Part shown: positions 24,960 through 51,032 of the stretch, one piece after another
Layout of the letters: every line of letters starts with the position of its first letter
How positions within the stretch are numbered: position 1 is the stretch's first letter
Source of the DNA: Candidatus Nomurabacteria bacterium
GTDB lineage: Bacteria; Patescibacteriota; Patescibacteriia; HK-STAS-PATE-3
Length of the DNA: 64,000 nucleotides
Direction: 5' to 3'
Assembly: GCA_023898465.1 (NCBI GenBank)
Contig: CP060223.1
Location: 416,001 to 480,000, forward strand
Program-made: the position numbers and the translations under genes
The notes under the pieces: model-generated
The model's input: the letters and a program-made list of their open reading frames with translations, nothing else
Told to the model about the DNA's origin: nothing
Databases searched by the model: none

Positions 24960-27175
<2,216 letters not shown>

Positions 27176-27624: not shown

Positions 27625-28017
27625 TCAATCATCGTGAGAAATGCTGCGAATATCAGCACTCAGTATACTCCAGGCGAGGATACCGGTCAACGCAGCGACA
27701 ATCCATCCACCCAAGCCAAAATCCTTAAGTAATAACCCAGTAAGAATAAGCGTAACAACACTTCCTAGTAATGGAAACACGATGCGGAGTAAGGTCACTG
27801 AATTTTCTTCTGACTGCTCAAATATATGTGCGTCCTGCGCAATGGTCAGTACGCCAATGAGAATCACTGTCCCAACGAGATAAGGGTAGGAAATAAAATT
27901 CTGAGGGAAATGACTGACAAAGGGATCAATCAATAATAAAATAAAAGTAAAGCAAAGCAGAGCAGCAAAAATATCACGGGCGAGGATATTAAATTTTGGT
28001 TCAGGTGAATGATCCAT
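27625..28017 (-). CDS. small polytopic membrane protein, unknown
   Basis: 130 aa with 4 TM helices, in an operon with the cupin gene. Confidence 0.4.
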   Translation of the reverse strand: MDHSPEPKFNILARDIFAALLCFTFILLLIDPFVSHFPQNFISYPYLVGTVILIGVLTIAQDAHIFEQSEENSVTLLRIVFPLLGSVVTLILTGLLLKDFGLGGWIVAALTGILAWSILSADIRSISHDD

Positions 28018-28021
28018 GATA

Positions 28022-28900
28022 CTAGTTTAAAACACGTGACCAAAGGGGCGTCTTGGTAAATTGTGTCTGTAACCAATCAAGATTTACCCTACCTGCATCA
28101 GACTGCATAGATGGTGCACGTAGAGAAAAATAAAATCGATTATCGTTTACAAACAAGCTTGGTAGATGGAAAGTCAACTCAGCAACCGACCATTGACCAT
28201 CTGGGATTGGTGGACGATAAGTGCTAAGTATTTCATCATAAGATAAAAGTTCATCGACTGTACTTGGCTCTACCTCTATTCCACTCATCTCAGGAAGTAT
28301 TACTTCGGCTGATAGATCATTCCTTACCTGGCTTAAACCGGGCGCATACCAAGCTAATGCAAGGTTCGGATGATCATCACTTGCAAAAAATTCATCGATT
28401 GTGTTAAAACGTTTTTCTTTTTGCCAAAGTCGTACACTGCCATTGTCTAATACATGCCAGGTAAGATTATCAAGTGCATCACTTTTAATAGGGATATTTA
28501 CTGGCGGGATATCTAGCCTTGTTTGCGGATTAAGAAAAACAATAGGTCGATCTTGATTTTGAAATCGGAGGCGCATCTGAATATCTACAAACGCAACACT
28601 CGGACGTACCGTAAAGCGCAATTCCTGGTCAATAAAATACTGTGGCTTATTGGAGGAGCTGGACTCAGTTAATTGCAGTCGAGTTGGATCATCCACTTTA
28701 ACTATTGACGAGGAATCATGAAAATCTGTCCGGAGTGTTACTACGCCAAAAGCGCCGGTGTACTGTCCGGCTAACCAAATAAGCACTGCGAAAGGTGACA
28801 GCCAAATAAAAATCCGCAAAACAAGGATTGTCTTATTTTTTTTCTCAGCAGGTATTTCTTCCATGTGTTTATCTTTCCAGGGTATAGAGACTGAGTCCAC
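28022..28900 (-). CDS. membrane-anchored hypothetical protein with large extracytoplasmic domain
   Basis: 292 aa with an N-terminal signal anchor (ILVLRIFIWLSPFAVLIWLAGQY). No motif recognised. Confidence 0.45.
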   Translation of the reverse strand: MDSVSIPWKDKHMEEIPAEKKNKTILVLRIFIWLSPFAVLIWLAGQYTGAFGVVTLRTDFHDSSSIVKVDDPTRLQLTESSSSNKPQYFIDQELRFTVRPSVAFVDIQMRLRFQNQDRPIVFLNPQTRLDIPPVNIPIKSDALDNLTWHVLDNGSVRLWQKEKRFNTIDEFFASDDHPNLALAWYAPGLSQVRNDLSAEVILPEMSGIEVEPSTVDELLSYDEILSTYRPPIPDGQWSVAELTFHLPSLFVNDNRFYFSLRAPSMQSDAGRVNLDWLQTQFTKTPLWSRVLN

Positions 28901-30476
28901 CCTCCAAGGGACTAACTAAACGCCAGCTGCGTCCAGTCTGCTGCGCATAGGCTTGTAATTGCGCTGCTTCCACCTCGCCCCAAACTATAGCATAGACAGG
29001 TACTTTTTCGACAAGCGCATTTGCCGCACGTTGATGTTCTGCTTGTAATACATTGTATCCAATCACTTTTCGTAATGGCCAAAATACCTTGTCTTGATCT
29101 CGAGCTAGCAATACTCCATTTGAGGGAACTTTTTCCAGCACTGTCTCTTTATTATAGCTTGCAATATTTTCTTGCACCTCGCGATCAAGTGCCAGCCCAT
29201 AGAGAGGATCAGCATAAATTCGTGTCAGGGAAAACAGCATGAGTATGAACAAAAGGAAGAGCGAAATTTTCTTACCAAAACGTATTCTGTGTAAAAGAAA
29301 ATGCAAAGCGACTACCATAAAAGGCACAAGGAGTAGGAGTCCCGGCATAAGGTAACGCAAATATGATGATCCAAAGAGCAATACTGACGGGTCAAGAAAT
29401 TCGCTAAAGGTGAAACTCCCGTAAAGCAACACTAAATAGAGCAAGGAAAAAAGTGTTACCCAAGCAAAGGCAAATGCTTCACGGTTTTGTTTTGCACCAC
29501 GGAAGATGACGAGGAGTAAGCCAATAAGTCCAAGAATAGTCCATACGCCTAAAAAAGATGAGAGGTAATGGACAACAACTTGAGCAATCTGTCTGATTTG
29601 AATACCAAAAGGAAAAAAGAGGTGACCAAGACTTACCCAAAGTGCGGTCAGACTATTTAAGTGAACTCCGTTATTTGTTGCACTATCAGTAATCGTATAA
29701 CCAGTGCTGAGAAAATTGCCAAAGGTGAGCTGCTGGTAATACGCAATCGGAATAAAACACAACACGAAAATTACTGCGATAAGGAAAAGGTGACTCCATG
29801 GAACTTTTTGACGAACTACTATCCAATAGAGAGCAAAAGCTGGTAGCACCCAGACCAATTCCGAGGTTCTTATGACTAGCGTCATACCTAGCATTACCGC
29901 AAAACCAATTGCGTCAACAATCCTCTTCTTTCCTAACCACCTCACAAAGAAAAACCAGGCAATAAATAGGAAGTCAACAAAAATAGTGTTATGCCAAAGC
30001 GGTCGGTGATTATAAAACCAGAAAATCGGATGGATAAGCCACAAGACAGAACTCAACCACCCGACCTGACTATTCCAGATTCGACGAAAAAGCGCAAAAA
30101 CAAAAAAACTTGTGAATATACTTATCGCTGCTGTAAAAAATGGCAACGCTGCTTCACCAAAAATACGAATACCTAGCCCATAGAACAAAGGCAATCCTAG
30201 CCATGAAGCCGGAACAATACTATCCCCGATTGCGCGCATGCTACGTGGATGCAGTAATCCGCCTGCTAAAGACTCAAGCGACTCCTCTATGACAAATGAA
30301 CCTGTGCGAGCATAGTGTCGAGCAAAAAATGCATTAGCCGTCTCATCAGGAGATCCGTATGTTTGCGTGCCGTGTAAACCAAAAGTATAGAGAAAAAACA
30401 TAACAAGCCCAAGAGCTGCTAAAGCCCAAAACGGTCGAGCTGCTTTGTCCTGTAGTACTGAAGTAAATGTCGACAT
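28869..30476 (-). CDS. polytopic membrane protein, GT-C glycosyltransferase-like
   Basis: 535 aa with 12 or more TM helices. The first loop has SPDETANAFFARHYARTGSF, a DE-type motif like PMT/ArnT families. A -10 TATACT lies 9 nt upstream of the ATG. Confidence 0.5.
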   Translation of the reverse strand: MSTFTSVLQDKAARPFWALAALGLVMFFLYTFGLHGTQTYGSPDETANAFFARHYARTGSFVIEESLESLAGGLLHPRSMRAIGDSIVPASWLGLPLFYGLGIRIFGEAALPFFTAAISIFTSFFVFALFRRIWNSQVGWLSSVLWLIHPIFWFYNHRPLWHNTIFVDFLFIAWFFFVRWLGKKRIVDAIGFAVMLGMTLVIRTSELVWVLPAFALYWIVVRQKVPWSHLFLIAVIFVLCFIPIAYYQQLTFGNFLSTGYTITDSATNNGVHLNSLTALWVSLGHLFFPFGIQIRQIAQVVVHYLSSFLGVWTILGLIGLLLVIFRGAKQNREAFAFAWVTLFSLLYLVLLYGSFTFSEFLDPSVLLFGSSYLRYLMPGLLLLVPFMVVALHFLLHRIRFGKKISLFLLFILMLFSLTRIYADPLYGLALDREVQENIASYNKETVLEKVPSNGVLLARDQDKVFWPLRKVIGYNVLQAEHQRAANALVEKVPVYAIVWGEVEAAQLQAYAQQTGRSWRLVSPLEGGLSLYTLER

Positions 30477-30507
30477 AGCTATTTTAGTATACTGGAGGAC
30501 CTATGGC

Positions 30508-30537
30508 TTTACAATTTAGGGCGAAGGTCCATACAAT
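30508..30537 (+). promoter_or_regulatory. putative sigma70 promoter (-35 TTTACA 30508-30513; -10 TACAAT 30532-30537, 18-nt spacer) for the 30544 gene
   Basis: Hexamers read from the sequence. A divergent promoter (-35 TTGTAA, 17 nt, -10 TATACT at 30486-30491 on the minus strand) overlaps it and points to the 28869..30476 gene. Confidence 0.3.
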
Positions 30538-30543
30538 GCAAGT

Positions 30544-30903
30544 ATGAATACCTACTTACGAGAAATTACCGTTCATGCACTCCTCATATTCATCGCCTCG
30601 TGTATAGTTGGACTCTTTTGGCTAAAAATTACAGAGTCAATCATATTCGGCCTAGGAATCACGGGGGTACTTTTTATTCCTGGTGCCATCTGGCTGGAAA
30701 TTATTACGCAGGGACAACTTCATTCTTTTGTCCGTCTTCTCCTTCGCGTACTACTTTCGGCTATTCTTGTGGGCGTTACCTTGCTAGCGCTGAACAGGTT
30801 GGGAATAGCATTCAGTCAAACAGTGGTCTTACTCAGTTTATCCATACTAAGTGGAATCGGAATACTTATCTTAGTATTACAGCACAGGAGTAAAAAAACG
30901 TGA
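30544..30903 (+). CDS. small membrane protein (4 TM), unknown
   Basis: 119 aa, hydrophobic throughout. Its stop overlaps the next gene start. Confidence 0.4.
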   Translation: MNTYLREITVHALLIFIASCIVGLFWLKITESIIFGLGITGVLFIPGAIWLEIITQGQLHSFVRLLLRVLLSAILVGVTLLALNRLGIAFSQTVVLLSLSILSGIGILILVLQHRSKKT

Positions 30904-31784
30904 CTTTGGGAATTATTCTCTCTTTTATTGCTGCGATTTTTTGGGCGAGCAGCAATATTATCGATAAAATAGTTATCACGCATCATATCGAACGCCCAGG
31001 ACAAATAATGATCATAATAAGCGGCCTCTATACTGTTATAGGTGGTGGAATATTATTTTTTATCCAAGAGCCTGTTCGGCTAACTCATATGCCTATACTT
31101 CTGGCCTGTGGAGCATTATGGACACTCATGGGATACACTTACTTCATTGCCATTTCCCGAGAAGAAATTTCTCGCGTAGTTCCTCTTTTTGCTTTTATAC
31201 CAGCTTTCACCGCGATGCTCGGTGCTATTTTTTTGCATGAAATTTTTGCCTTCACCACCTATCTTGGCATTGCCGGACTCATCTTCGGGACCTTTCTCAT
31301 ACTTTCCCGCGGCTCACTTGCTTCAGTGTTTAAAAACAAGTCGCTGAGCATAATGCTCCTTAGCTCGTCCTCCATTGCCGTGTACAACATCCTGAGTAAA
31401 TATGTTTTAGATTACTATTCATATTGGACAGTCTTTGCCTGGATAACGCTTTTTACCGCCTTGATTGGATGGATAATATTTTTTCCACATATTAAAGGTG
31501 TACGTGAAAATTTAAAAAAAGGCTGGGATGGCACACTTCTCTATGTTGGGTCAGAAATTATTGCGCACTTTGCAGCACTTATCTACACCGCTGCAATAGC
31601 TGTCTGGTACGTCACTTTAGCGAGTAGCATTATCACCGTACAATATCTCTTCCTTTTTCTTTTCACGATCCTTCTCGCAAAGTGGAAACCCAATTTAGTA
31701 CCTGAATTGCTCAATCGCAAAATAGCCGCGCAAAAAATAATTGCGATCCTTTTCATAATATTGGGCGTGGTGCTAATTAGTTAG
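30900..31784 (+). CDS. EamA/DMT-superfamily transporter (10 TM)
   Basis: 294 aa with two 5-TM EamA-like halves. GTG start. Confidence 0.6.
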   Translation: MTLGIILSFIAAIFWASSNIIDKIVITHHIERPGQIMIIISGLYTVIGGGILFFIQEPVRLTHMPILLACGALWTLMGYTYFIAISREEISRVVPLFAFIPAFTAMLGAIFLHEIFAFTTYLGIAGLIFGTFLILSRGSLASVFKNKSLSIMLLSSSSIAVYNILSKYVLDYYSYWTVFAWITLFTALIGWIIFFPHIKGVRENLKKGWDGTLLYVGSEIIAHFAALIYTAAIAVWYVTLASSIITVQYLFLFLFTILLAKWKPNLVPELLNRKIAAQKIIAILFIILGVVLIS

Positions 31785-32881
31785 CCTTTAACTACAGACC
31801 GCAATGCCTGAGCAAAGCCCTCAGCCATTCTTTCGTAGCTGAAGTTTACGATGCGCTCCTTTGACGCACGACCAAATTGCTCACGCAGACTTGATTGACT
31901 TGCTAAGGTATCAAGTGCGCGAGTAAGTGTGTTGGTATCCCCTGCTCTCACTATAAAGCCGTTCACATCGTCTTGCACAAGATCATTTGCTGATCCGACC
32001 GCATCAGTCACTACAACTGGTTTGGCAAACTCCATAACCTCATTTACAACCAAGCCCCAGGGCTCAGCAATTGGTTGTGCTGTTGAAGCAAGAATAAAAA
32101 TATCACAATTTGCATACGCTTGCACTTTTGCGCTGACATCCCCATCATCGCGAATAAAATGAACTCGACTGGCAATGTCTAATGCGTAACAAAGCTGCTC
32201 CAGCTTCTGTCGATATCCAGGCGCCTGACTATCATCTGCACCAAATAGAATCAACTCAGCTGGCACGTGCATACTAGCAAAGGATTTACAGAGAACATCT
32301 AGGCCCTTACGTGGCAAAAATCTTGCTACGCTGAGTATTTGAGGTAAGGTACTTTCCTTAAAGCTTGCCTCTCGTACCTCTACTCGGCTGGCATTTGGCG
32401 CCCAAAAAATCTTTTTTGCCCGTACACCCATTTGTAAAAAGTGCTGCTCACTCCTGACCCCAGGCACAATGACTGCCGAAGCATTTTGAACTAAGGTCGA
32501 AATAATTGGCTGCACAAGTTTGCGACGCCATGTCATTGGCCAGGCCCACTCTTCTGACCACACCAGGTAAGGGACGTTTTGTTTGCGGCAATACTTAGCC
32601 ACACTATAAAATCCCCATAACTGCTGAGGTGTGTCCCAATTTCCGGTAACCACAGCTGCATACTTCTTTTCTTTAAGCTGTTGTAAAGCACCTTTTCTCC
32701 CCTGCCCCGACAAAGGAGAAATCTGTACTCCTGGGACGCCTTTTAGACTCTCTGAGGCCGTCTCGCTGATGTAGAGGTCTATTTGAAACCAGGAACCAAG
32801 TAATGCAAAAAGCTCACGTCGATAACTTGGCAAGGTATTATGAATAATGAGGATAGATTGGGGCATTATTGTCTGAGGCAA
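31781..32881 (-). CDS. glycosyltransferase family 4 (GT-B, Glycos_transf_1)
   Basis: 366 aa. The C-terminal E-x7-E region (VVNEVMEFAKPVVVTDAVG) and overall GT4 pattern. Confidence 0.8.
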   Translation of the reverse strand: MPQTIMPQSILIIHNTLPSYRRELFALLGSWFQIDLYISETASESLKGVPGVQISPLSGQGRKGALQQLKEKKYAAVVTGNWDTPQQLWGFYSVAKYCRKQNVPYLVWSEEWAWPMTWRRKLVQPIISTLVQNASAVIVPGVRSEQHFLQMGVRAKKIFWAPNASRVEVREASFKESTLPQILSVARFLPRKGLDVLCKSFASMHVPAELILFGADDSQAPGYRQKLEQLCYALDIASRVHFIRDDGDVSAKVQAYANCDIFILASTAQPIAEPWGLVVNEVMEFAKPVVVTDAVGSANDLVQDDVNGFIVRAGDTNTLTRALDTLASQSSLREQFGRASKERIVNFSYERMAEGFAQALRSVVKG

Positions 32882-34458
32882 ATTCTCGTGCTAGCCTACA
32901 GCTTAGCATGAACAGCCCACTTCAGCACGAATCTTTATTGGAAAAAGTTGGCCTTATCGCCTTAGCGCTCTTTTTTAGCGCATGCACACTGCTTATCGTA
33001 CTCAGGGCTCCGTACCAGGCAGGTGGCGATCTTTTTTTTCATACTTGGTTTACGCAACAGATAATTGACTCAGGTCAGATTCCTCAAAGCGCGCCAACCT
33101 ACGCAGCGGCAACGCACTATAGCTTAGCACCACTTTTCCACTTTATTATCGCGAGTATTCAAAGTGTTGTTCATATTCCTCTCACGACACTTCTTCCACT
33201 CCTTAACATAGGGGCGGCGGCACTCTGGATAAGCTTACTTTTTCTCGTTATTAAGCAAAGCACTAGGAGAGTGGACGCAGCACTCTTTGGCGCGCTACTA
33301 AGCATCTTCTTCACCGAGGATAGCAGTTTTTTCTATCTACTCCCGCGCACGGTAAGTATGTGTGTAGTCCTTGCAGCAATGTATGTACTCAACAGCACGC
33401 TAACTCGATTCCCTCGCCTCATCATGCTTAGTTTATTTAGTTTAAGCATACTCCTCCTGCACCTCCCCTCAGCTCCTTTTTGGTTAAGTATTCTTGCAAC
33501 GTTATCTATAGTACGGGCTTGGCGTGATTACAGAAAAATCCTTCATGATATTTTTGCGTTCGGACTTGGCGCAGCGCTCTTCATCATTTTATTACTCCCT
33601 GAAATTTTGAAAAATGGGATACCAATAAATCCAAGTGACTCTAGCTTCCAGTCACAGAGCGACGCCCCCTTAGCCATTGCCCAATTGCTTCATGTAGTAC
33701 AAAATCCATTTGTTGCTATTTCGATCATACTAGGACTCGCCGGACTTCTCACTTACACGTATCGATCAAAAAATAAAACGTCACTTTGGATGTTATGGGC
33801 TTTTCTGATTGCGAGCACACTGGTTGCAATGCAAGAATTTGGTCAATATGCTTTCCTGCCCGAGAGAGCAATTAGTTATCTCTTCATACCTTTTTCACTA
33901 CTAGCGGGATATGCCTACTTGGCAATCAATAGCATAATCCCAAACTCCTATCGCGTCATTATTTTTACTCTATTGCTGCTAACCATCATTCCACTAGGCG
34001 CGTTACAATTACTTAATAGCAATGAAGCACCGCTCAAAGACGCAGTCAGCCATGATGAGTTACAAGGTCTCAATGATCTACGTGAAGCTCTGCCTGAAGG
34101 TGCTTTTGCTAGCGACCCACTAACCATGGTAAAAATTGCCAGTATTACAAATCTTCAACCGGCCATTTCATTTGAGGCAACTAATTTACGTGCCGCGAGC
34201 GTGAGAAATTGGCCTATTGTTATTGGACTATTTGGCCCAGAAGAAAACCTTATTCCCTACCTTACTCAAAATAACATCAAATATATTATTCTTTCCACTG
34301 ATACCTATCAAAGATTCCTTCATTTAGATGAGCGCTTTGCAAGTCAAGCAGTTTTTGAAAATATTTTTACCTCAAAACAAACAATAACTCTTGAGGGATT
34401 TAGCGATCCAATTCCCTATTACGCCGTGTATCGCTACCTAGGAGCCAACGAAGAATAA
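32869..34458 (+). CDS. polytopic membrane protein with C-terminal soluble domain, unknown (possibly glycan polymerase/GT-C-like)
   Basis: 529 aa with 10 or more TM helices. The start may be the internal Met at 32908. Confidence 0.45.
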   Translation: MSEANSRASLQLSMNSPLQHESLLEKVGLIALALFFSACTLLIVLRAPYQAGGDLFFHTWFTQQIIDSGQIPQSAPTYAAATHYSLAPLFHFIIASIQSVVHIPLTTLLPLLNIGAAALWISLLFLVIKQSTRRVDAALFGALLSIFFTEDSSFFYLLPRTVSMCVVLAAMYVLNSTLTRFPRLIMLSLFSLSILLLHLPSAPFWLSILATLSIVRAWRDYRKILHDIFAFGLGAALFIILLLPEILKNGIPINPSDSSFQSQSDAPLAIAQLLHVVQNPFVAISIILGLAGLLTYTYRSKNKTSLWMLWAFLIASTLVAMQEFGQYAFLPERAISYLFIPFSLLAGYAYLAINSIIPNSYRVIIFTLLLLTIIPLGALQLLNSNEAPLKDAVSHDELQGLNDLREALPEGAFASDPLTMVKIASITNLQPAISFEATNLRAASVRNWPIVIGLFGPEENLIPYLTQNNIKYIILSTDTYQRFLHLDERFASQAVFENIFTSKQTITLEGFSDPIPYYAVYRYLGANEE

Positions 34459-34590
34459 ACAGTAAGGCCACCGAAGTAATAATAATTCCAACGCTTAATC
34501 CTAATAAAGGCGCTTGGTTTTCGATACTGGCTGGCAAAAGCAAGCGAAATAGCCAAGTAAAAAAATGTGCTGGAGCATATACTATGTCAC

Positions 34591-35667
34591 TCATACACCA
34601 AGAGTAAAGTGGTAAATTTTTCTTCGTAGGTCTGCCCAGCTCGGCATAGTTTGCGCGTACTTACGAGCTGCATCACTCATACCCGAAACAACCTCGTCAT
34701 GGCGAAGCATTTGATACATTGCTTGCTCAAGCGCCTGTGCATCATTTGTTGGAATAAGTACGCCTCGCTCATTGTCTCCAATTAATTTCGGCACACTTCC
34801 CACCCGAGTGGCAATTACGGGCGTTCCCAGGGAAAACGCTTCAATAATAACACGTGGGACCGCTTCACTTAATGAGGGTAAAATAAGCGCCTGACTTCGT
34901 GCCATTTCACGCAGGACTTCATCATGAGACAGCTCTCCCAATATCTTAATGTGAGAAGCAAGCCATAAGTCTGTGCGAATCTCTTTTTGCAACCATTTGA
35001 GATCTTTTCCTGTTCCGATAATTTTTAGTTGGCAGGCTGTGTTTGTCTTACCAATTGCCCGCATAGCCTCAATTAATACATCTAAACCTTTTGCTTTTTT
35101 AAGTAAGCTGCCCACAAAGATAAATTGATTTGACTCTCGTCTTGGAAGATCCTTTGGTAAGGTGCTAGGAACGAGAGAAGAAATTTCTAAAATGCGTGCT
35201 TCGGCAATTCCCATATCACGGATTCTCTGCGTTACCGCCTCACCAACGGTCAGGTATTTTGGCTTACGTCCGAAACGCAGCAGCCAGAGTGGCGCTTGCA
35301 TATCTTGCACGTCGTAAACTATTGGTATTCCTAATGTTATACTCGCAAAAACTACCCCTAAGGTTATTGCCGTACTAGAATGCACTTGCACGACGTCAAT
35401 CTTTTTTCTAAGGCGAAAAAAAAGTATCCAAAAAAAAGTCCACAGTGGTAAAAGGAGTATGCGGATGAGAAAAAAAGAGCGCACCACACTCGGCAGAGCA
35501 GGGTGAAAATGTATGGATGATCCTGTGATTTCCTTTCCAGTCCAGGTAGTCAATAGATGCACCTCAAGATGCTCGGGGACTTCTGCCACGAGTTCTGCAT
35601 AATATTGGGCTGCCCCGCTTCCTTCGGGTGGAAAGGAAGGTGTGACAATAAGGAGTCGCTTACTCAT
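34591..35667 (-). CDS. glycosyltransferase family 4 with N-terminal TM segments
   Basis: GT4 C-terminal half (LILPSLSEAVPRVIIEAFSLGTPVIATRVGSV). The start is taken at the Met of MSKRLLIVTPSF, 8 nt overlapping the upstream gene. Confidence 0.7.
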   Translation of the reverse strand: MSKRLLIVTPSFPPEGSGAAQYYAELVAEVPEHLEVHLLTTWTGKEITGSSIHFHPALPSVVRSFFLIRILLLPLWTFFWILFFRLRKKIDVVQVHSSTAITLGVVFASITLGIPIVYDVQDMQAPLWLLRFGRKPKYLTVGEAVTQRIRDMGIAEARILEISSLVPSTLPKDLPRRESNQFIFVGSLLKKAKGLDVLIEAMRAIGKTNTACQLKIIGTGKDLKWLQKEIRTDLWLASHIKILGELSHDEVLREMARSQALILPSLSEAVPRVIIEAFSLGTPVIATRVGSVPKLIGDNERGVLIPTNDAQALEQAMYQMLRHDEVVSGMSDAARKYAQTMPSWADLRRKIYHFTLGV

Positions 35668-36688
35668 GTCGCTCTTCCTTGAGCCAACGTACGATCGCGT
35701 CAGCCATAGCATCAACATCCCCTGGAGGCACTAATTTTCCTTTACCACGAAAAACCTCTGCATGCGGTCCCACACTAAAAGCAATAACAGGCTTAGCAAA
35801 CTCTTGCGCCTCGGCAAAAGGCAGGTTAAAGCCCTCCCATTGTGTCGCAGTGACATAGAGATCGCAGGCTGCGTAAAACTTTGGCAAATCTTCGTCTGAC
35901 ACAAAACCGATAAAATGCGTATGTGGTCCAGCTGCCCGTTTCAGTTGCGCAAGATATTTCTCAAAAGTTGCTTTTCCTACAATTAACAAATGCGCATCCG
36001 GAATTTGCTCACGCACTTTACTAAATGCACTTAAGAGCATGTGAAAACCTTTATGCGGAGATAAGCGCCCAACAGTAAGTAGGACTGGCGCATCACCCAG
36101 CTCCAGATGCGCGCGAATTTCGTCACCCGAAACCGCTTCACGAAATCGCTCCTTATCAACCGTGTCATGTACGACACGCGAGACGCGACCTGTTTCTTCT
36201 TTACATACTTCTGCTAAAAAGCGACTAATAGAAATAATCTCATCCGGATCTCGTAAGGAGCGATTCGTTAGCCAGCGAAAAATCGTGATGTATATTTTTT
36301 CAGTCCAAGTAGAAAAAGTATTAGCTGGTGGAATGCCGTGATTGTAGTAGACATAGCGAGTTCCCCACTCTCGCTGCATTTCATGTGCTAAAGCGTTGAG
36401 AGGATACTGATGACTATACACCGTATCCTGCTTTCCTAAGCTTTTCATAGCTGAACGAATTTTTGCTCGATCTAGAGCAAAAAACCCTAAGCGATACACT
36501 CGCTGCCAAAAAAGCGACTTCGGCATACCCAACACAAATACCTTGTAATGCTCACTCTTCATGTCACCCTCTAGACACACGACCGTCACTGTATGACCCT
36601 CCGCACTGAGCGACTCAGCTTGTTGTGCCACAACTCGATCAATTCCAGAAAAGCGAGAAAATGTACCGGTAAGTAAGGCTATATTCAT
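35660..36688 (-). CDS. glycosyltransferase family 4
   Basis: 342 aa. The N-terminal MNIALLTGTFSRFSGIDRVV, and C-terminal EGFNLPFAEAQEFAKPVIAF. Confidence 0.8.
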   Translation of the reverse strand: MNIALLTGTFSRFSGIDRVVAQQAESLSAEGHTVTVVCLEGDMKSEHYKVFVLGMPKSLFWQRVYRLGFFALDRAKIRSAMKSLGKQDTVYSHQYPLNALAHEMQREWGTRYVYYNHGIPPANTFSTWTEKIYITIFRWLTNRSLRDPDEIISISRFLAEVCKEETGRVSRVVHDTVDKERFREAVSGDEIRAHLELGDAPVLLTVGRLSPHKGFHMLLSAFSKVREQIPDAHLLIVGKATFEKYLAQLKRAAGPHTHFIGFVSDEDLPKFYAACDLYVTATQWEGFNLPFAEAQEFAKPVIAFSVGPHAEVFRGKGKLVPPGDVDAMADAIVRWLKEERHE

Positions 36689-37819
36689 CCTAGTTGCGAA
36701 TAAACGCTACGAAGCTTCTGTCCGATTTCCTGCCAGTCATAGCGTTGACGGGCTAAGTTCTGACCAGCTTCACCTAGCTGACGCGCGTAATCATCATTGC
36801 TCAATATCGCTCGTATTGCGTCCTCAAGCGCGTGCGTATTTCCTGGAGGATATAAAATGCCACCTACCCCATTTTCAGTAACTTCGAGGGTGGGTGGCAA
36901 CTCGCTACTTACATAAGGCGTGCCAAGGGCCATTGCTTCAGCCAAGACAATCCCAAAGCCCTCAACTGAGGAAGGGAGACAGAGAATATGACTCTTTGCC
37001 ATTGTTTCTAAGACATCGACATGTTTTTCCACGAAGCCGGAAAAATGCACTCGATCCGAAACACCCAGCTGCTCAGTTAGGGCTTCTAACTTGGCTTGCT
37101 GTGGACCGCTACCGATAATTTTCACCTGCAGATTTGGCATATCATTCCGCAGCTCAGCTACTACTTCCAATAAATCAGGTATACGTTTGTAATTCACTAG
37201 GCGGCCAACAAAACAAATAGTTGGGTCATCATAGCGTTCAAGGTTTTTAGGCAGACGAGTGAAGTCAACTCCGTTTGGTATTACGGCAATACGCTTTGGA
37301 TCCATACCATGCCGCAATAGCTTCGCACGAGTAGCGGTACTCACTGCGATAACTTTATCCCAAAGGAATTTTAAAAAGCGGCGTTCTACAAATTCACCGA
37401 AGAGACTAGAAGAAAACCAAGGTTAGCCCGCCACTCACCTATCCACACATCATGATAGGTTGCTACCGCGCGAATTTTCTTTTTCTTGGCAATAGTGATA
37501 GCTGCTTGATAAAGCAGGAAATTTGTCCCCTCAACTACGTCAATATCTTTTTTAAGCGCAGTTGCAATCACATTACGCATAAATATGTAGCGCTTCAGTA
37601 AACCGCCTGATTGAGTGAAAGAACGCGAGGACCGCAACGAATAACCTCAATACCAGGTAGTGGTTCCTGAGTCAGGTGTCCTTCTTGTGCGGCAATGACA
37701 GTTACTTTATGCTCTTTTGCTAACTCTAGTGCCGAGTAATATGTGCGTGCTTCTACACCGCCCCGAAAATCAAGATCTGCTGTGTATGGGAAAAATTCTG
37801 CAAGAATGAGGATCTTCAT
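36685..37819 (-). pseudogene. GT4 glycosyltransferase disrupted by two or more frameshifts (three ORF fragments)
   Basis: The N-terminal fragment 37595-37819 (MKILILAEFFPYTADLDFRGGVEARTYY...), the middle 37386-37637 and the C-terminal 36685-37344 (...CLPSSVEGFGIVLAEAMALGTPYVSS) are consecutive GT4 segments in three different frames. The C-terminal frame continues upstream as ...GEFVERRFLKFLWDKVIAVSTATRAK without an ATG. Confidence 0.55.
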
Positions 37820-37820
37820 A

Positions 37821-38132
37821 TTATTCTTTTTTATCCGTTTCTTTACGTAGTGCTAACTCGCGGACAATCGTGGTTATCTCCTGTTCCAAATGTTCAATCT
37901 TCATCATCACTCGGAACAGCGCATACACTAAACCAATGACCGAGATGTAGAGAATAGCATCGACGCCTCGTCCAACGCCGAGGAATTTAGCAAGATACTC
38001 AGTTAATCGAGGTAAAAGGACTATAACACTGATGCCCAGCCAAATAAGAAGCCAAAAAAGAATTCTTTGGCAGTAATATCCTTTTTGCGTAACGATATGC
38101 AGTCCGTACAACCACGAAGAAGGCAAACACAA
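37821..38132 (-). CDS. small 3-TM membrane protein with C-terminal charged helix (DUF2304-like partner of polyprenyl-phosphate GT2 enzymes?)
   Basis: 103 aa. It lies immediately downstream of the GT2 (dolichol-P-sugar synthase-like) pseudogene. The family call is tentative. Confidence 0.35.
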   Translation of the reverse strand: MCLPSSWLYGLHIVTQKGYYCQRILFWLLIWLGISVIVLLPRLTEYLAKFLGVGRGVDAILYISVIGLVYALFRVMMKIEHLEQEITTIVRELALRKETDKKE

Positions 38133-38158
38133 TAACGAGAATCTGTATCAGCATAGTC

Positions 38159-38840
38159 TTATTTCAATAATCGAAGTAATAACAATCGAAAAAAAGTTCT
38201 TACACCCTCTCCAAAACTCTGTCCTTTTGACATTGAGTATTCAGTATAGATTGCAGCAATTGGCACTTCGCTTAGACGGAAAGCGTGCCGCTTCACCTCA
38301 TACATTATTTCCGTAGACACCTCCATGCGATTTGACTGCAGATGCAGGGTGCGAGCAGCCTGTCGAGTAAACTCCCGGAGGCCTGACTGACTATCACTCG
38401 TCTGTAATCCAAACATGAATAAGGTGATCCGATTTCCTATCGCGTTATACAGCCGACGACGCAAAGGCATCCTAGGCTGCGTCTTATCGCGGACAAGCAT
38501 ACGTGAGCCTACAACAACATCAGCTACACCTTTTTCAAGCGGCTCAATAATGCGTAGTATATCTTTTGCTTCATGCTGACCGTCAGCATCAAAGGTAACA
38601 ATGTATTCTGCGCCAGCTCGGATGGCAGCCTGAATGCCGGTAGCAAGCGCTCCACCAAGACCTCGATTAATGAGGTGGCGATACACCCGTGCACCTGCTG
38701 CTTGAGCTATCTGACCACTACCGTCACTAGAACCATCGTCAATAACAAAACATCCGGCGTGACTGCACGGACTGCGCGCACCACATCAGATATAGTCTTT
38801 GCTTCGTTAAATGCAGGAATAACAATTGCCACCTTCATGG
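38159..38840 (-). pseudogene. GT2 polyprenyl-phosphate sugar synthase (Dpm1/GtrB/ArnC-like), frameshifted near 38750
   Basis: A reverse-complement ATG at 38838-38840 gives MKVAIVIPAFNEAKTISDVVRAVRAV, then the frame breaks. A second frame continues AGCFVIDDGSSDGSGQIAQAAGARVYRHLINRGLGGALA..DADGQH into the 175-aa ORF 38159-38686. Confidence 0.55.
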
Positions 38841-38987
38841 CACAAATTACTCTACTAAAAAGCGGTCAAAAATGCAAGGGGTCACGCTATAAAAAATCCA
38901 AACTTAGCGTGCTGATTAATAAAAACAACGTGCCTTTGTGATCACGCCTATTGTGACTTGTCACTTTAGCCACTATGATGATACCGA

Positions 38988-40267
38988 ATGCCACTCCCAA
39001 ATCCGCAACTCCAAAACTTATATACTGACGCAAAAAAGGATTTTACCTTAGCCTTTCGCACTGGGATGCTGCACCTATTAAGCAGTTCCGGTATTGTCCA
39101 AATCTCTGGCTTTGTGGTTACACTTGTGCTTGTCCGCGTGCTCAGCACGGAATCGGTCGGGCATATTCGCCTCATTCATTCCGTACTGGACTTTCTCATC
39201 CTCTTAGGTGATTTTGGCTTAGCCATGGCGATGTTGAAATATATTGCCGAGCCAAATGACGAGGAGGAGAAAAAATCACTGCTTAGTCATGCCAGTTACG
39301 GAATTCTTTTCACTTCTTTGCTCACAGCCCTTCTGGCTTTTGGACTAAGCTTTATACCAAACTTAATTGGCGATGCGACAGCGCAAGCAGCGTTACGTTG
39401 GATGGTTTGGCTGATCCCCTTGCGACGCTTTTGGCATAGTTGTGCACTGGGAACATGGCCGAAAAAGAATCAAGCAAAAAGCATGGTATGAATTAGCCCA
39501 GCGGCTTGTACTTGTTGTCCTTACCTTAGGTGGACTTCTTTACGCTGGATATTCAGGATACCTCTACGGATTCGCTATTGGTATGGCACTTGTGACGCTT
39601 ATTTTACTGAGCCGACTACCCCAAGGCTGGTGGAGCCATCGTATGTAAAAGAAAAAATGCGCAAGCTTTTTGCTTTTGGCTGGTACGCCATGCTGGCCAA
39701 TCAATTCCAAGTTGTTGTAGTAACTGCTGATGTCGTCATGATTAGTTTACTCACTCGCGATGCGGTTGATGTGGGAATCTACAGTGTGATGGCGCTTTCA
39801 TCCGAGGACTTTGGATACTTCCAAATGCCATCATGCAAACTGCGCTTCCATATCTCTCGGAACAATCTGCTGATACGAATCAATTACAACAGAGCATCAA
39901 ACGGATCAGCACAAAATGGCCATGCTGATGCTGCCACTCTGCGCCTTACTTTTCTCCTGGCTCCCACGCTTATCCCTTACTCTTTGGAAGAGACTACGAG
40001 AGTGGAATAAAGGTCTTTCAGGTTCTGATCCTCTCACTCTTTTTCAGCTCATTGGCCATGGTCAACTATACCGCGCTTTTAAGTTTAGGTAAGGTAAAAT
40101 TTAACTTTTATACAGTACTTATTGAAGCCCTAGTCAACATTGTCTTGAATTACTGGCTGATTTCGCAACTTGGGATGATCGGTGCTGCCTGGGCAACAGT
40201 GGTCACCTTTGCACTACGGTATGGGATAAACTCATTTTTCCTCCGACGACAGCTTAAAACTGCTTGA
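38988..40267 (+). pseudogene. Wzx-like oligosaccharide flippase (MOP superfamily) broken into four ORF fragments
   Basis: The ORFs 38988-39491, 39442-39648, 39630-40010 and 40052-40267 are sequential segments of one polytopic MOP/Wzx-type protein in different frames. They need at least three frameshifts to join. Confidence 0.5.
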
Positions 40268-40396: not shown

Positions 40397-40414
40397 GCGC
40401 GTTTGGGAGGATGC

Positions 40415-40960
40415 ATGAAAACGCTCAGTTTTTTGCTGATGTTGCTTAGCTTTGGCTTGGCAACACCGAGCTTGGCACAGCTCACGCTGCGCCATGGGAC
40501 ACTCATGCCAGGTAATGGTATGAGTGAATCAGCGCAATACCGTCTGGTGAGCGTCATCGGATGGGCTGACCTTAGCCAACATGCCGATACTACTTGGGTA
40601 CTGATCGAAGGGCCGTGGATTCCTCGGAACCATGACACCTCGGCAGTGGGAGGACCTGAAACTCAGGCACACCGCCTAAGCCTCTCGAACATTCAACCCA
40701 ATCCGATTGGTCAATCCGGTCTGATTCACTTCAATGTCCCTGGGATCAATGGAGAGAAATCGCCCCTTACCATGGCAATCTATGACGTCACCGGGCGTCG
40801 AGTACGCACACTGGTCTCAGGCGAGATGCAATCCGGTCCACAGGTTGCTATCTGGGATGGACGAGACGACAGTGGAAAGGCGCTGGCGAATGGCATCTAT
40901 TGGTGCCAAATTCAGTGCAAAAACAACAGGGCAACCAAAAAGCTGGCGGTTATCCGCTAA
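40415..40960 (+). CDS. secreted small protein consisting of signal peptide, short linker and a T9SS-type/FlgD-Ig-like C-terminal sorting domain (island 2)
   Basis: A signal peptide MKTLSFLLMLLSFGLATPSLA. The C-terminal about 90 aa (LSNIQPNPIGQSGLIHFNVPG...LTMAIYDVTGRRVRTLVSGEMQSGPQVAIWDGRDDSGKALANGIYWCQIQCKNNRATKKLAVIR) follows the por-secretion CTD / FlgD_ig pattern (NPF..T.I.F.L......V.L.IYD..GR.VRTL......G.H...WDG.D..G..V.SGVY.Y.L..G....TKKM.L.K). High G+C. Confidence 0.6.
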   Translation: MKTLSFLLMLLSFGLATPSLAQLTLRHGTLMPGNGMSESAQYRLVSVIGWADLSQHADTTWVLIEGPWIPRNHDTSAVGGPETQAHRLSLSNIQPNPIGQSGLIHFNVPGINGEKSPLTMAIYDVTGRRVRTLVSGEMQSGPQVAIWDGRDDSGKALANGIYWCQIQCKNNRATKKLAVIR

Positions 40961-40978
40961 GTAGAAGGAGATGAGATC

Positions 40979-42502
40979 ATGTTGAAGTTCCAGAGTCTCT
41001 GTATTTTGGTGGCGCTTTGTTGTGCCACGCTCGTCTTTGCTTCTGTGCCAAACCTGCTCACCTACCAGGGCTACTTGGAAGATGGTGGACAGGCAGCCAA
41101 CGGCAGCTACAACGTCACCTTCCTGCTCTACGATCAGGCAAGTGGCGGTACCAGCCTCTGGGAAGAAGTACAAACCGGTCTCGCGGTCCAGGACGGACTC
41201 ATGCAGTCATACCTCGGCCGGATCACGCCGCTTCCCAGCAACCTCGATGAGATCGAAACCCTCTATCTCAGCGTCGTTGTGCAGGGTGACACTCTGCAAT
41301 CACGCACCGAGCTCGCTTCTGTCCCCTACGCCTTCCGCGCCAAGCTATCTGAACACGCAGTCTATGCTGATTCGGCCGGAAATGGCGGAGATAGTGGTAG
41401 TGGATTCTGGGCAGCGAACGGCAACGATATCCATAACACCAATTCTGGGTTTGTGGGGATCGGGACGGAGAATCCAAACGAGCCCCTACATGTTGAAGGA
41501 CAAGGCATAGATTGGGCTGCCAGATTCACAAACAGTGATGGAAGCAGCAGCTCAGACGTGCGCTTGGCCTACAGAACTGGCGCTGGCATCTACATGAACA
41601 CCACTGGAACTACTAGTGGGTACTTCATGAACTTGAAGCATGAAGATCTCACAAAGGTCTATCTCACGAAGTCAGGCTACCTTGGGCTTGGTACGGATGG
41701 TCCAATTTCACAGCTCCACGTGGTGAACCCGGTCAACGCGGGGGCTGGAAACATCTTCAACATCGACCGAACGAACGACGTCACAAAGCAAACCTACATG
41801 GGCTTCCGTACGCACACGCTGCAGGACGCCTTCATAGGTGTGCCGGCAAACACGACCAACACGCTCACCTTTGGGTATGCCGGAAGCGCCGAGCTTATGC
41901 GTTACAACGCAAACGGGCTCGGTATTCGCACCACCAATCCGCAATTCACACTCGATGTGAACGGGAATACCAATTCAAGTCAGTACTACCTGGCCGGGCA
42001 CCAGATCGCCTACACTACTGGCGGCGGATCTCTCTTTCGTCTCAAGGACCCAAGCGGTGCAGACCGTGTTGAGTTCCAGGGGAACGGAGGCGATCTGCTC
42101 TTGGTGGGACCTGTCCGTATCAACGGCGACCTCTGCGTCACTGGTCAGAAAAACCGTATTGTGGAAACACCTTACGGCACTCTGGCTTTGAATGCTGAGG
42201 AATCGGCCGAAGCTTGGTTCTCTGCCAGCGGCGAAAGTCAGCTGGAAAACGGCCGAGCCCAAGTCGAGCTGTCTGAACGCTTCCTCGCGACCGTGGTCGT
42301 TTCTGATGAGCATCCTATGCAAGTCAACGCGACCTTCTATGGAGCGCACGGCGGCGGATGGTACGTGGAGCGTGGGCTGAACAGCTTCACTCTCGTCGAC
42401 CCCAGCGGGAGTAATGCACCGTTCACTTGGACGGTCAAAGCTCGCCAAAAAGGTTACGAAGACGTGAATCTCCGCGTTGTCGCGCCAACAGATGGGAGGT
42501 GA
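40979..42502 (+). CDS. secreted tail-fibre-like repeat protein (peptidase S74 / endosialidase-chaperone-type GIGT...LHV repeats) (island 2)
   Basis: A signal peptide is present. The N-terminal LTYQGYLEDGGQAANGSYNVTFLLYD..SGGTSLWEE block matches a phage-fibre-like motif. Three repeats of the G-[FYL]-[VLG]-G-[IL]-[GR]-T-x-x-P-x-x-x-L-[HD]-V motif occur (NSGFVGIGTENPNEPLHV; SGYLGLGTDGPISQLHV; NGLGIRTTNPQFTLDV). Confidence 0.55.
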   Translation: MLKFQSLCILVALCCATLVFASVPNLLTYQGYLEDGGQAANGSYNVTFLLYDQASGGTSLWEEVQTGLAVQDGLMQSYLGRITPLPSNLDEIETLYLSVVVQGDTLQSRTELASVPYAFRAKLSEHAVYADSAGNGGDSGSGFWAANGNDIHNTNSGFVGIGTENPNEPLHVEGQGIDWAARFTNSDGSSSSDVRLAYRTGAGIYMNTTGTTSGYFMNLKHEDLTKVYLTKSGYLGLGTDGPISQLHVVNPVNAGAGNIFNIDRTNDVTKQTYMGFRTHTLQDAFIGVPANTTNTLTFGYAGSAELMRYNANGLGIRTTNPQFTLDVNGNTNSSQYYLAGHQIAYTTGGGSLFRLKDPSGADRVEFQGNGGDLLLVGPVRINGDLCVTGQKNRIVETPYGTLALNAEESAEAWFSASGESQLENGRAQVELSERFLATVVVSDEHPMQVNATFYGAHGGGWYVERGLNSFTLVDPSGSNAPFTWTVKARQKGYEDVNLRVVAPTDGR

Positions 42503-42505
42503 GGG

Positions 42506-44284
42506 ATGAGATGGATTCTCTCGGTCCTACTCCTGGCTCTTGCGAGTAGTGCCTTTGCCGTACAACCAAATCTTCAGCTTCCCTTTGCTGAAGGGACCGT
42601 TCACAAATGTACGCAAGGTGCCAATGGCGAGTACTCACATCAGTACACTTCAACACGTTACGACATCGATCTAGACACGATCAACAATGGCGATGAAACG
42701 TTGTACGCCCCAGTATCCGGAACCGTCTATCTGCATGATGAAGGTGAATCCGGATTCGGAAAACACGTAAACATCGACGTTGGAGACAACACTTTTGTTC
42801 TCCTTGGGCATTGCAAGAGCTTTCTTGTTTCTGATGGACAGCAGATAACAACAGGGATGCCTGTTGCGCTTGAAGGCTGTACAGGAAATTGTTACGGTGA
42901 TCATGTACACTTTGGTCTGCACACTGGAAACCCTCAGATAGGCGCTTCAAGTAGCACATCAATTGTTGCCGAACACATCTGGGCTAGGGATGTGACCGCG
43001 GGTGGAGAATTTCGATTCTTCCGAAGCGATGAATTCATAGGCGATTTGACTAGTGGCCACAACTACGAGACTGGCTATTTAGGCACACCCTACCTCTGTT
43101 CTCCTGCTGGTCAAGATCCACCCGCTGCCCCGCCATTCTGGACCAAGCCTGGCGACATCAAATCATACTTGGCGAGATTCAGAAATACGGGAACGGCAAC
43201 GTGGATTGATAGCGGAGGCGTTGGTACGAATAACTACGTTGAACTACGATCGGTGTTTCAGAACGGCACACCCAAAAACTGTTGGCTTGAGCCAGTAGAT
43301 TGGATTGGGTGCCCTGCATCCTGCAACACTCAACGAGTAACCTCGTTTGACGAAGGGACAGTCGCTCCTGGTCAAACTGCAACATTCACCTTCCAGGCAC
43401 GAACACCAAATGTTCCAACTGACCTTGACGGTGAAGTAGTGTACTTCCGCCCCTTCCACGGAGCAGACATCGGAATCGACGGATGGGGGGAGATGAACTT
43501 CCTTATCTATGTCGACGCCGACGCGCCGCAGGTCCCGCCGAACTTGAGCGTGAACCCGTCAGACTGCACGAGCACCAACTCGTTCTTCTTTGACTGGGAT
43601 GCTTCGAGCGACGTGGGTAGTGGACTGGATCTCTACGAGTGGCAAATCAACGGATCTACACCGAACTCCACGACTAGTACTTCGGTACAAGTGAATGGGA
43701 GTCAAAGCGTTCACCCGGGCACCAACGTCTTCTACGTCAGAGCCTTGGATAAGGTCGGAAACGTGAGTGGAATGGCCACGGTGGAATTCTGCTTCGAAAC
43801 CGACTGCAACCTCAGCTTCAACCGAGACGACGACGGCAATAGTGTGCCTGACGGATGGACGGCTGACCCTCATGGAGGTTCAAGCTATAGCTGGCCGCCT
43901 GGAGGCATTGGAAGCAACTCACACTACGTACGTATTGTGAACGCTGATGGAGATGATTGGATGATCTATACTCGCACCAACTGCGATCAGATCACGCCAG
44001 GACAACTCTACCGAATCGGCTTCTGGTACAACACCACCTCCACGGCTCCGTTCGAGTGGGCACTGTTCAAGAGTAGTGTTTCAACTGGTCAACGAAGTCT
44101 GAACGCCCTCGTGAGCAACCCAACCGCAGACGGGCAGTGGCATCAATTCCAAAGTGAACCCTTCACAATCAACTCCGGCGACCTCAGCACCTACCCGAAA
44201 TTCGGGGTAAAGGTACCGCCGGGATCTGTCGGAACCTTCAACTTCGACGAGGTCTTCTTCGTTGAAACTGAGCTGTGTCAATAG
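42506..44284 (+). CDS. secreted M23-family metallopeptidase with Fn3/Ig-like and CBM-like (jelly-roll) C-terminal domains (island 2)
   Basis: A signal peptide MRWILSVLLLALASSAFA. M23/LytM motifs are H-x3-D (HQYTSTRYDID) and HxH (GDHVHFGLH) around LYAPVSGTV / VALEGCTGNCYGDHVHFGLH. An Fn3-like block follows (PNLSVNPSDCTSTNSFFFDWDASSD...YEWQINGS...VFYVRALDKVGNVSG), and the C-terminal about 170 aa has a CBM4/9-like pattern. Confidence 0.6.
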   Translation: MRWILSVLLLALASSAFAVQPNLQLPFAEGTVHKCTQGANGEYSHQYTSTRYDIDLDTINNGDETLYAPVSGTVYLHDEGESGFGKHVNIDVGDNTFVLLGHCKSFLVSDGQQITTGMPVALEGCTGNCYGDHVHFGLHTGNPQIGASSSTSIVAEHIWARDVTAGGEFRFFRSDEFIGDLTSGHNYETGYLGTPYLCSPAGQDPPAAPPFWTKPGDIKSYLARFRNTGTATWIDSGGVGTNNYVELRSVFQNGTPKNCWLEPVDWIGCPASCNTQRVTSFDEGTVAPGQTATFTFQARTPNVPTDLDGEVVYFRPFHGADIGIDGWGEMNFLIYVDADAPQVPPNLSVNPSDCTSTNSFFFDWDASSDVGSGLDLYEWQINGSTPNSTTSTSVQVNGSQSVHPGTNVFYVRALDKVGNVSGMATVEFCFETDCNLSFNRDDDGNSVPDGWTADPHGGSSYSWPPGGIGSNSHYVRIVNADGDDWMIYTRTNCDQITPGQLYRIGFWYNTTSTAPFEWALFKSSVSTGQRSLNALVSNPTADGQWHQFQSEPFTINSGDLSTYPKFGVKVPPGSVGTFNFDEVFFVETELCQ

Positions 44285-50151: not shown

Positions 50152-50152
50152 C

Positions 50153-51031: not shown

Positions 51032-51032
51032 T

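Follow-up and report, generated by a model that had tools for sequence, protein, structure and literature searches.

A cluster of frameshifts that breaks up four adjacent glycan genes in a deposited Patescibacteria genome is very probably a local consensus error of that genome rather than a biological feature. The window analysed, a stretch of 64,000 nucleotides in which no tRNA genes were found, matches HK-STAS-PATE-3, which carries the NCBI label 'Candidatus Nomurabacteria bacterium' and is placed by GTDB in ABY1/UBA10025. HK-STAS-PATE-3 is a Patescibacteria MAG recovered from activated sludge in Hong Kong, circular and 1,082,586 bp long (PMC8518188, supplementary table S3). There are 12 frame-breaking lesions, all of them 1-bp deletions, spanning positions 37408-39973. 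They lie in an aberrant patch at 37282..39973 that, from its first to its last difference from independent contigs, contains the 12 deletions together with 14 SNPs and one TC/CT swap. Judged at the level of independent assemblies, the real population almost certainly has all four genes intact, with purifying selection acting on them.

The initial annotation had reported GT4, GT2 and Wzx genes split into ORF fragments, and these are present where it placed them, with domain matches in line with each identity (GT4, a probable GT2 polyprenyl-phosphate glycosyltransferase and a Wzx-type flippase). All three are indeed broken, but a fourth broken gene between them (DUF2304, 37821-38154) had been overlooked, and a real cluster counted as seven or more frameshifts comprises 12, every one a 1-bp deletion. 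The adjacent GT4 genes at 31781-36688 are unbroken ORFs, as had been noted, and a stretch of higher G+C (40.4-44.3 kb) does adjoin the cluster. Altogether, four intact genes appear as at least eight ORF fragments in the deposited sequence.

The GT4 glycosyltransferase gene occupies 36685..37819 on the minus strand and would encode 378 aa when intact, but is divided among three minus-strand ORFs in the window. The piece at 36685-37344 matches Glycos_transf_1 (E 4e-43), and those at 37386-37637 and 37595-37819 match parts of Glyco_transf_4. Its two deletions lie at codon 138 (GG to G, after 37408) and codon 64 (GGG to GG, after 37628), and the intact product aligns with the Glyco_transf_4 and Glycos_transf_1 models over their entire lengths. 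The neighbouring gene (37821..38154, minus strand) encodes a small membrane protein of the GacJ/Rv3632 family (DUF2304, PF10066) with an intact length of 111 aa, which is split into minus-strand ORFs at 37999-38154 and 37821-38132. One deletion, at codon 35, contracts an A7 run (after 38053), and the other, at codon 25, a T6 run (after 38081). The intact protein covers positions 2-105 of the 106 in the PF10066 model, with 93 bits.

The probable GT2 polyprenyl-phosphate glycosyltransferase gene, whose PpgS/GacI-like product matches PF00535 (Glycos_transf_2), lies at 38159..38838 on the minus strand and would encode 226 aa. It is represented by minus-strand ORFs at 38159-38686 and 38707-38838, separated by a single deletion at codon 31, which shortens an A5 run (after 38746). 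The best model for the intact product is NCBIfam PpgS (NF058614), matched over its full length with 192 bits. Because this score falls below the equivalog cut-off of 370, the protein is best described as a PpgS relative and not as an orthologue. The TC/CT swap at 38372-38373 produces the change G156E in this protein, and among the 80 homologues listed residue 156 is A, V, L, I, G, C or M and never E. The homologous loci come from a scan of genome contigs with the intact GT2 as query, with identities of at most 53% among the matches listed. The DUF2304 and GT2 genes are 4 nt apart, and this adjacency recurs in 53 of the 80 related loci listed.

The Wzx/MOP-type, GacK-like flippase gene is located at 38988..40267 on the plus strand and would encode 428 aa. 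It carries seven of the deletions, located in a C5 run (39415-39419), a T5 run (39428), a single T (39637), a T4 run (39795), an A5 run (39912), a T5 run (39949) and a C4 run (39973). Plus-strand ORFs at 38988-39491, 39442-39648, 39630-40010, 39916-40092 and 40052-40267 show Polysacc_synt/MurJ similarity, and the intact flippase matches positions 4-272 of the 274 in PF01943 with 77 bits.

Two long Logan contigs from separate runs, SRR12358676_356936 (27.5 kb) and SRR12358675_473727 (31.5 kb), provided the opportunity to contrast the deposited sequence with independent assemblies. The two share 16,272 bp without a single difference, and both carry all four genes intact, with products of 378, 111, 226 and 428 aa. 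Judging from their near-identity to the MAG, the two Illumina libraries of the source paper and the accession numbering, SRR12358675 and SRR12358676 are probably Illumina runs of the same BioProject (PRJNA648801), although the run numbers were found neither in a literature search nor in the supplements of that paper. Both contigs show the same 29 differences from the window, 28 of which are confined to 37282-39973. The window and both contigs have zero differences over 33817-37281 and a single one, a SNP at 43887, over 39974-62823.

The GT4 gene is also intact in a third run, SRR14234116, so that the 378-aa product is now present on three Logan contigs. A relative with about 90% identity, in SRR7638773, differs from the intact version by 99 substitutions and 0 indels. 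At both DUF2304 sites this relative keeps the frame, and its alignment with the window has gaps exactly there. The frameshifted products, by comparison, are confined to the MAG's NCBI record and absent from other assemblies. At least four fragments of the split genes have been deposited there as separate proteins (USN53960, USN53962, USN54057 and USN53964). An exact protein look-up with the 219-aa GT4 fragment yielded no match because the NCBI call uses a later start (206 aa). A scan of JGI metagenomes with a pattern across the 38746 site that allowed either length gave no match.

The distribution of the lesions is as distinctive as their type. There are no insertions and no multi-base indels among the 12, which fall in GT4 (two), DUF2304 (two), GT2 (one) and the flippase (seven). 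All 12 gaps in the alignments with the contigs are 1-bp deletions in the window that lie in the 2.7-kb patch, out of 29.0 kb compared, and the other 26.3 kb (approximately) contain 0 indels and 1 SNP. By our own arithmetic, the chance of such clustering under a uniform spread is about (0.093)^12, or roughly 4e-13. Nine of the deletions contract runs of at least 4 nt, although such runs make up 8.5% of patch bases, and 11 fall in runs of at least 2 nt, which in two cases are no longer than 2-3 nt. The remaining deletion, at 39637, lies outside any homopolymer. Runs of at least 5 nt are shortened in 7 of 24 cases inside the patch versus 0 of 121 outside. When the 12 bases are reinstated, all four ORFs read through without a premature stop, and G156E is the sole amino-acid difference.

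At the left edge of the patch, inside the GT4 gene, a 100-bp stretch (37282..37381, minus strand) holds the 14 SNPs and differs from all other read sets. This stretch is an alternative allele. The 14 SNPs are distributed across 12 codons and are all synonymous, which indicates purifying selection rather than decay. SRR14234116 carries the other allele here and not that of the window, and the private allele had no exact match in JGI metagenomes or in any other data set compared. Gene conversion from a paralogous GT4 was considered as a source of the 14 SNPs and rejected, as there is no second copy within the window. An alternative genetic code was likewise rejected because the breaks are frame changes instead of in-frame stops and table 11 gives normal translations for all of the genes nearby.

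Strain variation of a more usual kind is present elsewhere in the window. The region 14968-30280 shows 118 SNPs and three intergenic indel events with 0 frameshifts, a pattern that differs from that of the patch. Look-ups for the exact products of window proteins at 9317-11176, 31781-32881 and 6511-8718 found none, and the contig comparison therefore covers 14968-30280 and 33817-62823. The ORFs of 1-14967 and 30281-33816 are long and unbroken.

The way in which the MAG was produced is consistent with a consensus error. Its inputs were raw Nanopore (ONT) reads with a mean quality of about Q8.8 together with Illumina reads, and the workflow used metaFlye followed by Unicycler hybrid assembly of each bin, with no separate polishing step named (PMC8518188). 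The workflow assigned short reads to bins when their identity was at least 80%, and the source paper remarks that high accuracy is still hard to reach for contigs from error-prone long reads, even once they are polished (PMC8518188). Presumably, the approximately 2.7-kb patch at 37282-39973 missed the short-read-accurate sequence and kept a long-read consensus, which would carry the typical Nanopore error of one missing base, mostly in homopolymers. The locus appears to be strain-variable, and with a recruitment threshold of 80%, reads of the approximately 90% identical relative could have entered the bin and tangled or broken the short-read graph. The assembler may then have picked a 100-bp node carrying the alternative allele, with its 14 synonymous SNPs, and spanned the remainder of the patch with a consensus of long reads.

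Nanopore homopolymer-deletion errors known from hybrid and long-read MAGs resemble the patch in several respects. The single-base deletions are concentrated in homopolymers, the genes are split into neighbouring ORFs of different frames, and the defect is limited to a stretch that seems to have escaped short-read correction and is absent from what are probably short-read assemblies of the same population. Natural indels favour homopolymers too, and the location of the deletions alone is thus not discriminating. The patch differs from the known cases in that its errors are local, with the rest of the comparable window essentially error-free, and in that a 100-bp alternative allele lies at one border. 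This allele suggests a local graph or strain problem and not general under-polishing.

Among the alternatives to a consensus error, real pseudogenisation fares best, but we regard it as very improbable. Under this explanation, 12 independent 1-bp deletions would have cost the MAG strain a glycan module that co-occurring strains, those represented by the short-read contigs, still possess. The frameshifts do sit in a deposited, circularised genome, the population is strain-heterogeneous, and the private 14-SNP allele of the patch is absent from other read sets. Moreover, surface-glycan loci are frequently variable, and decaying clusters of surface-glycan pseudogenes, such as those of host-restricted pathogens, likewise contain several adjacent frameshifted genes. 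However, the lesions here are exclusively deletions of 1 bp unaccompanied by nonsense changes, the repaired genes show one missense change and no stop codon, and the substitutions that mark the patch edge are without exception synonymous. Independent data sets have intact versions of the genes, and the truncated products occur in no other assembly. The lesions strike four genes on both strands, with sharp patch borders, in a genome assembled from Q8.8 Nanopore reads. The flanks match the intact haplotype with 1 SNP in 26.3 kb, and such near-identity leaves no time for 12 neutral events within 2.7 kb. The initial annotation had favoured ongoing decay of one glycan pathway, perhaps superseded by the locus at 46-61 kb, and against this proposal stand the four intact genes on two long independent contigs, the intact GT4 gene in a third read set and a lesion spectrum unlike that of pseudogene decay. 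Relaxed selection would be expected to leave both insertions and deletions, varied in size, along with nonsense and missense substitutions. A comparison with a relative also speaks against it, given that the approximately 10% diverged sequence is in frame at the two DUF2304 sites. The evidence instead favours the alternative that the same annotation had named, a locally error-prone or strain-heterogeneous assembly.

Slightly less probable again is the prospect that the entire patch truly exists in phase in a minority sub-lineage, the 14-SNP allele and the 12 deletions together. In that event, slippage mutagenesis in a localised burst, perhaps driven by phages or a host, would have knocked out a surface-glycan module of four genes. 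The deleted haplotype would then be the one recovered by long-read assembly, whereas the short-read assemblies would represent the intact haplotype that dominates.

Phase variation, in which homopolymer tracts switch genes on and off, and programmed ribosomal frameshifting have very little in their favour. In some bacteria glycan genes do count among the classic phase-variable loci, and the sites here include an A7 and a T6 tract. The affected tracts are mostly 2-5 nt long, however, one site is not a repeat, every change is −1, and only the in-frame length is seen in three other read sets (the third covering GT4). As many as seven shifts fall in one gene, and we know of no recoding or phase-variation system that uses that many per gene. 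This number of shift sites makes either process untenable. Equally far-fetched is an error in the independent contigs with a correct window, for which there is nothing specific beyond the automatic way in which Logan contigs are assembled: contigs from two runs have the same sequence over 16.3 kb, a third run concurs for GT4, the approximately 10% diverged relative has the same frame, and the Logan versions match four Pfam families at full length, which twelve random insertion errors cannot explain.

If the patch is a consensus error, a public 'complete' CPR/Patescibacteria genome contains a 2.7-kb stretch of unpolished long-read sequence. Pseudogene counts, conclusions about the loss of glycan pathways and protein families built on this record would then mislead. 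Frameshift clusters in hybrid MAGs should be compared with short-read data before they are taken as genome decay.

The biology beneath the patch appears ordinary, namely a lipid-linked sugar module within a large Patescibacteria glycosylation region. Family membership and gene order suggest that the intact genes form a common GacI/GacJ/GacK-like (PpgS/Rv3632-like) module of this kind. The biochemistry of GacI/GacJ/GacK/GacL and of PpgS/Rv3632 has been described, including sugar-P-polyprenol synthesis by GacI/GacJ and its stimulation by the small partner protein (bioRxiv 10.1101/180810). As in the systems of Streptococcus pyogenes (GacI/GacJ/GacK/GacL) and Mycobacterium tuberculosis (PpgS/Rv3632), the GT2 gene directly adjoins the DUF2304 gene, and the window shares with the Gac module a Wzx-family flippase alongside and a GT-C transferase in the neighbourhood. 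It differs from these systems in that the flippase gene is divergently transcribed, the GT-C candidate is about 7 kb away, and the host is a Patescibacteria cell. Going by family and gene order, the GT2 enzyme, aided by its DUF2304 partner, would attach a sugar to polyprenyl phosphate on the cytoplasm-facing inner side of the membrane, the Wzx-like protein would flip the lipid-linked sugar, and the GT4 enzymes would build the glycan itself. The GT-C type membrane glycosyltransferase gene (PMT_2; 28869..30476, minus strand) is intact and encodes 535 aa, with a PF13231 score of 37.6 bits against a cut-off of 26.1. Its product is a candidate final transferase for the lipid-linked sugar of the GT2/DUF2304 pair, which it would transfer to an envelope glycan or protein.

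The ORF map of the 36.6-40.3 kb region, together with domain matches, bears out the initial annotation of three consecutive genes in pieces. On the reverse strand, a GT4 glycosyltransferase is divided among three ORFs (36685-37344, 37386-37637 and 37595-37819) and a GT2 glycosyltransferase between two (38159-38686 and 38707-38838), while a Polysacc_synt/MurJ-type flippase on the forward strand (38988-40267) is broken into four or five. The adjoining GT4 gene (35660-36688) is intact, as had been stated. However, a fourth broken gene was omitted from that list. This gene, at 37821-38154 on the reverse strand, encodes a DUF2304 small membrane protein of the GacJ/Rv3632 family (111 amino acids when intact), and it carries two frameshifts, in A7 and T6 runs, that leave ORFs at 37999-38154 and 37821-38132. 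Because the window elsewhere consists of tightly packed long ORFs without breaks, the lesions are real features of the sequence and are locally confined.

The window's proteins are held by NCBI as USN53927 to USN54057 under 'MAG: ... [Candidatus Nomurabacteria bacterium]', where the fragments of 36685-39491 are listed as separate proteins. These include a 206-amino-acid GT4 (USN53960), a hypothetical protein of 74 amino acids (USN53962, locus tag H6760_02215), a 194-amino-acid GT2 (USN54057) and a 167-amino-acid flippase (USN53964). In this way truncated sequences have passed into protein databases, where two serve as cluster representatives; a protein look-up found none outside the genome's own NCBI record.

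Independent sequence was obtained from Logan contigs, which are automatic assemblies of public runs. Exact-protein look-up with the intact GT4 (35660-36688) retrieved SRR12358676_356936 (27.5 kb), and look-up with the epimerase at 46231-47187 retrieved SRR12358675_473727 (31.5 kb) from a different run. These two contigs are identical across their shared 16,272 bp, and on both of them all four genes are uninterrupted, encoding proteins of 378 (GT4), 111 (DUF2304), 226 (GT2) and 428 (flippase) amino acids. The window departs from both by the same 29 differences, which comprise 14 SNPs at 37282-37381, a TC/CT swap at 38372-38373, one SNP at 43887, and 12 single-base gaps. In every gap the base is absent from the window and never from the contigs; the missing bases follow window positions 37408, 37628, 38053, 38081, 38746, 39415, 39428, 39637, 39795, 39912, 39949 and 39973. 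The observation is therefore confirmed and extended to four genes and twelve frameshifts; the clustering holds, and the initial count of seven or more becomes twelve. No difference from these contigs occurs at 33817-37281, and the SNP at 43887 is the sole one in 39974-62823. On a 1.6-kb contig from a third run, SRR14234116, GT4 is likewise unbroken and is of the common allele.

The deletions have a distinctive spectrum. Eleven of the 12 shorten same-base runs (G2, G3, A7, T6, A5, C5, T5, T4, A5, T5 and C4), and nine fall in runs of at least 4 nt, which account for just 8.5% of the patch between the first and last differences in the broken region (37282-39973). Among runs of at least 5 nt, 7 of 24 are shortened inside the patch compared with 0 of 121 outside. 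By our own arithmetic, 12 errors in 2.7 kb correspond to a density of about 0.45%. When the 12 bases are put back in silico, four ORFs without internal stop codons result, and their products differ from the Logan proteins at a single residue, G156E in GT2, which is due to the TC/CT swap. E is absent from this position in 80 homologues among the matches listed, where A, V, L, I, G, C or M is found instead, and the swap is probably a further consensus error. It adjoins a C-run.

The 14 SNPs at 37282-37381 represent 14% divergence over 100 bp from three other read sets. Each of them is synonymous, with two codons doubly changed, and the stretch is therefore authentic sequence from a related allele maintained in working order. 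The window contains no paralogous donor, and the allele was not found by exact match in JGI metagenomes or in SRR14234116. It resembles a short fragment of an allele from a related strain that was inserted into the consensus. A relative is represented by a 1-kb Logan contig (SRR7638773_228618; aligned to 37669-38681) with about 90% nucleotide identity, the same GT2-DUF2304-GT4 arrangement and intact frames. It differs from the intact sequence by 99 substitutions and zero indels, whereas its alignment to the window has gaps precisely at both DUF2304 deletion sites. Its DUF2304 protein carries two substitutions only, which indicates, as judged from sequence comparison, strong purifying selection on the module.

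The frameshift cluster is very probably a local consensus error of the assembly, probably left by a long-read bridge in a strain-variable locus. Related samples also contain a relative of about 90% identity, whose short reads may have been recruited into the bin, where they would have broken or tangled the short-read graph at this locus. In Unicycler, a gap that lacks a graph path is bridged by long-read consensus. This would leave a 100-bp node from the alternative allele and, after it, about 2.6 kb of consensus at Nanopore quality, as seen here. The published workflow is consistent with this sequence of events: PromethION reads with a mean accuracy of 86.7% (Q8.76) were assembled by metaFlye, contigs were binned, and every bin was re-assembled twice in Unicycler from long reads plus short reads recruited at ≥80% identity, the description containing no separately named polishing step (Liu et al., Microbiome 2021, PMC8518188). 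Table S3 of that study lists HK-STAS-PATE-3 (GTDB Patescibacteria; ABY1; UBA10025) as one circular contig of 1,082,586 bp with a G+C content of 0.470 and a relative abundance of 0.031%. The study used two Illumina libraries (PMC8518188), which we infer to be SRR12358675 and SRR12358676.

Ongoing decay of a glycan pathway, the reading initially favoured, would require that the captured strain truly carries these pseudogenes. The breaks are present in its deposited sequence, but this explanation is very unlikely. Decay through twelve indels should also bring insertions, longer indels, and missense and nonsense changes, and the flanks would not stay identical to an intact haplotype; lesion spectrum, selection and flank identity all fail to fit. 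Natural variation in the window is also different in kind. At 14968-30280, the window differs by 0.8% from contig SRR12358676_916322, with 118 SNPs, many spaced by multiples of three, and three indel events (3, 4 and 1 bp) at 24808-24846 within one SNP-dense intergenic stretch (24613-24901), and no gene is frameshifted there. From one part of the window to another, the MAG and the independent contigs thus reflect different mixtures of strains. Same-base tracts could in principle allow phase variation or programmed frameshifting, but this reading is untenable with as many as seven shifts in one gene and tracts mostly of 1-5 nt, and its probability is negligible. That the independent contigs are the faulty ones can in practice be dismissed, since three runs give the same result, the frame is kept in a diverged relative, and the repaired proteins again match their families over the full length. 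The alternative offered in the initial annotation, a locally error-prone and strain-heterogeneous assembly, is supported. The finding has some use as a data-quality flag and is biologically of low interest.

Contigs of both runs stop at about 30280, 33817 and 35772, within 30281-35760, which suggests that the GT4, membrane-protein and EamA genes there also vary among strains.

With frames restored, each of the four proteins spans its Pfam model end to end. The GT2 most resembles PpgS, the mycobacterial polyprenyl-phospho-N-acetylgalactosaminyl synthase; its score of 192 bits over the full length is below the equivalog cut-off of 370, and it is a predicted relative. Only 4 nt separate the GT2 gene from the DUF2304 gene, with the flippase next to the pair and divergently transcribed, and the two genes are also neighbours in 53 of 80 related loci among the matches listed. 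PMT_2-type GT-C proteins are encoded at 28869-30476 and 61547-63958, and the module sits inside a long glycosylation region. In characterized systems, GacJ and Rv3632 are DUF2304 proteins that bind GacI and PpgS, both GT2 enzymes, and stimulate them. In Streptococcus pyogenes, the proposed roles of the Wzx-like GacK and the GT-C enzyme GacL are to flip the lipid-linked sugar and to transfer it to the wall polysaccharide, respectively (bioRxiv 10.1101/180810). Given the family matches, gene layout, nearby GT-C proteins and recurrent adjacency, the module is an ordinary putative three- or four-component system that would decorate an envelope glycan or protein.

The low-G+C locus at 46231-61575 (37-41%), raised initially as a possible successor to this module, is identical in sequence to the independent contigs. 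Its genes specify a glycan pathway of the ABC-transporter type with an epimerase, GT2 and GT4 enzymes, Methyltransf_21 proteins, a DegT aminotransferase, WbqC, an ATP-grasp protein, a GH130-like protein and a sulfotransferase. No sign was seen of its having replaced the 36.7-40.3 kb module. The stretch at 40403-44284 (G+C 49-55% compared with about 44% around it) is joined to both flanks in two independent contigs and is therefore not a misjoin. Its three proteins are a 185-amino-acid protein with a FlgD_ig domain and a sub-threshold Por_Secre_tail (type IX secretion sorting) match, a 507-amino-acid protein without a family, and a 592-amino-acid M23 peptidase. A T9SS-like sorting tail, here a sub-threshold match, is odd for a Patescibacteria genome.
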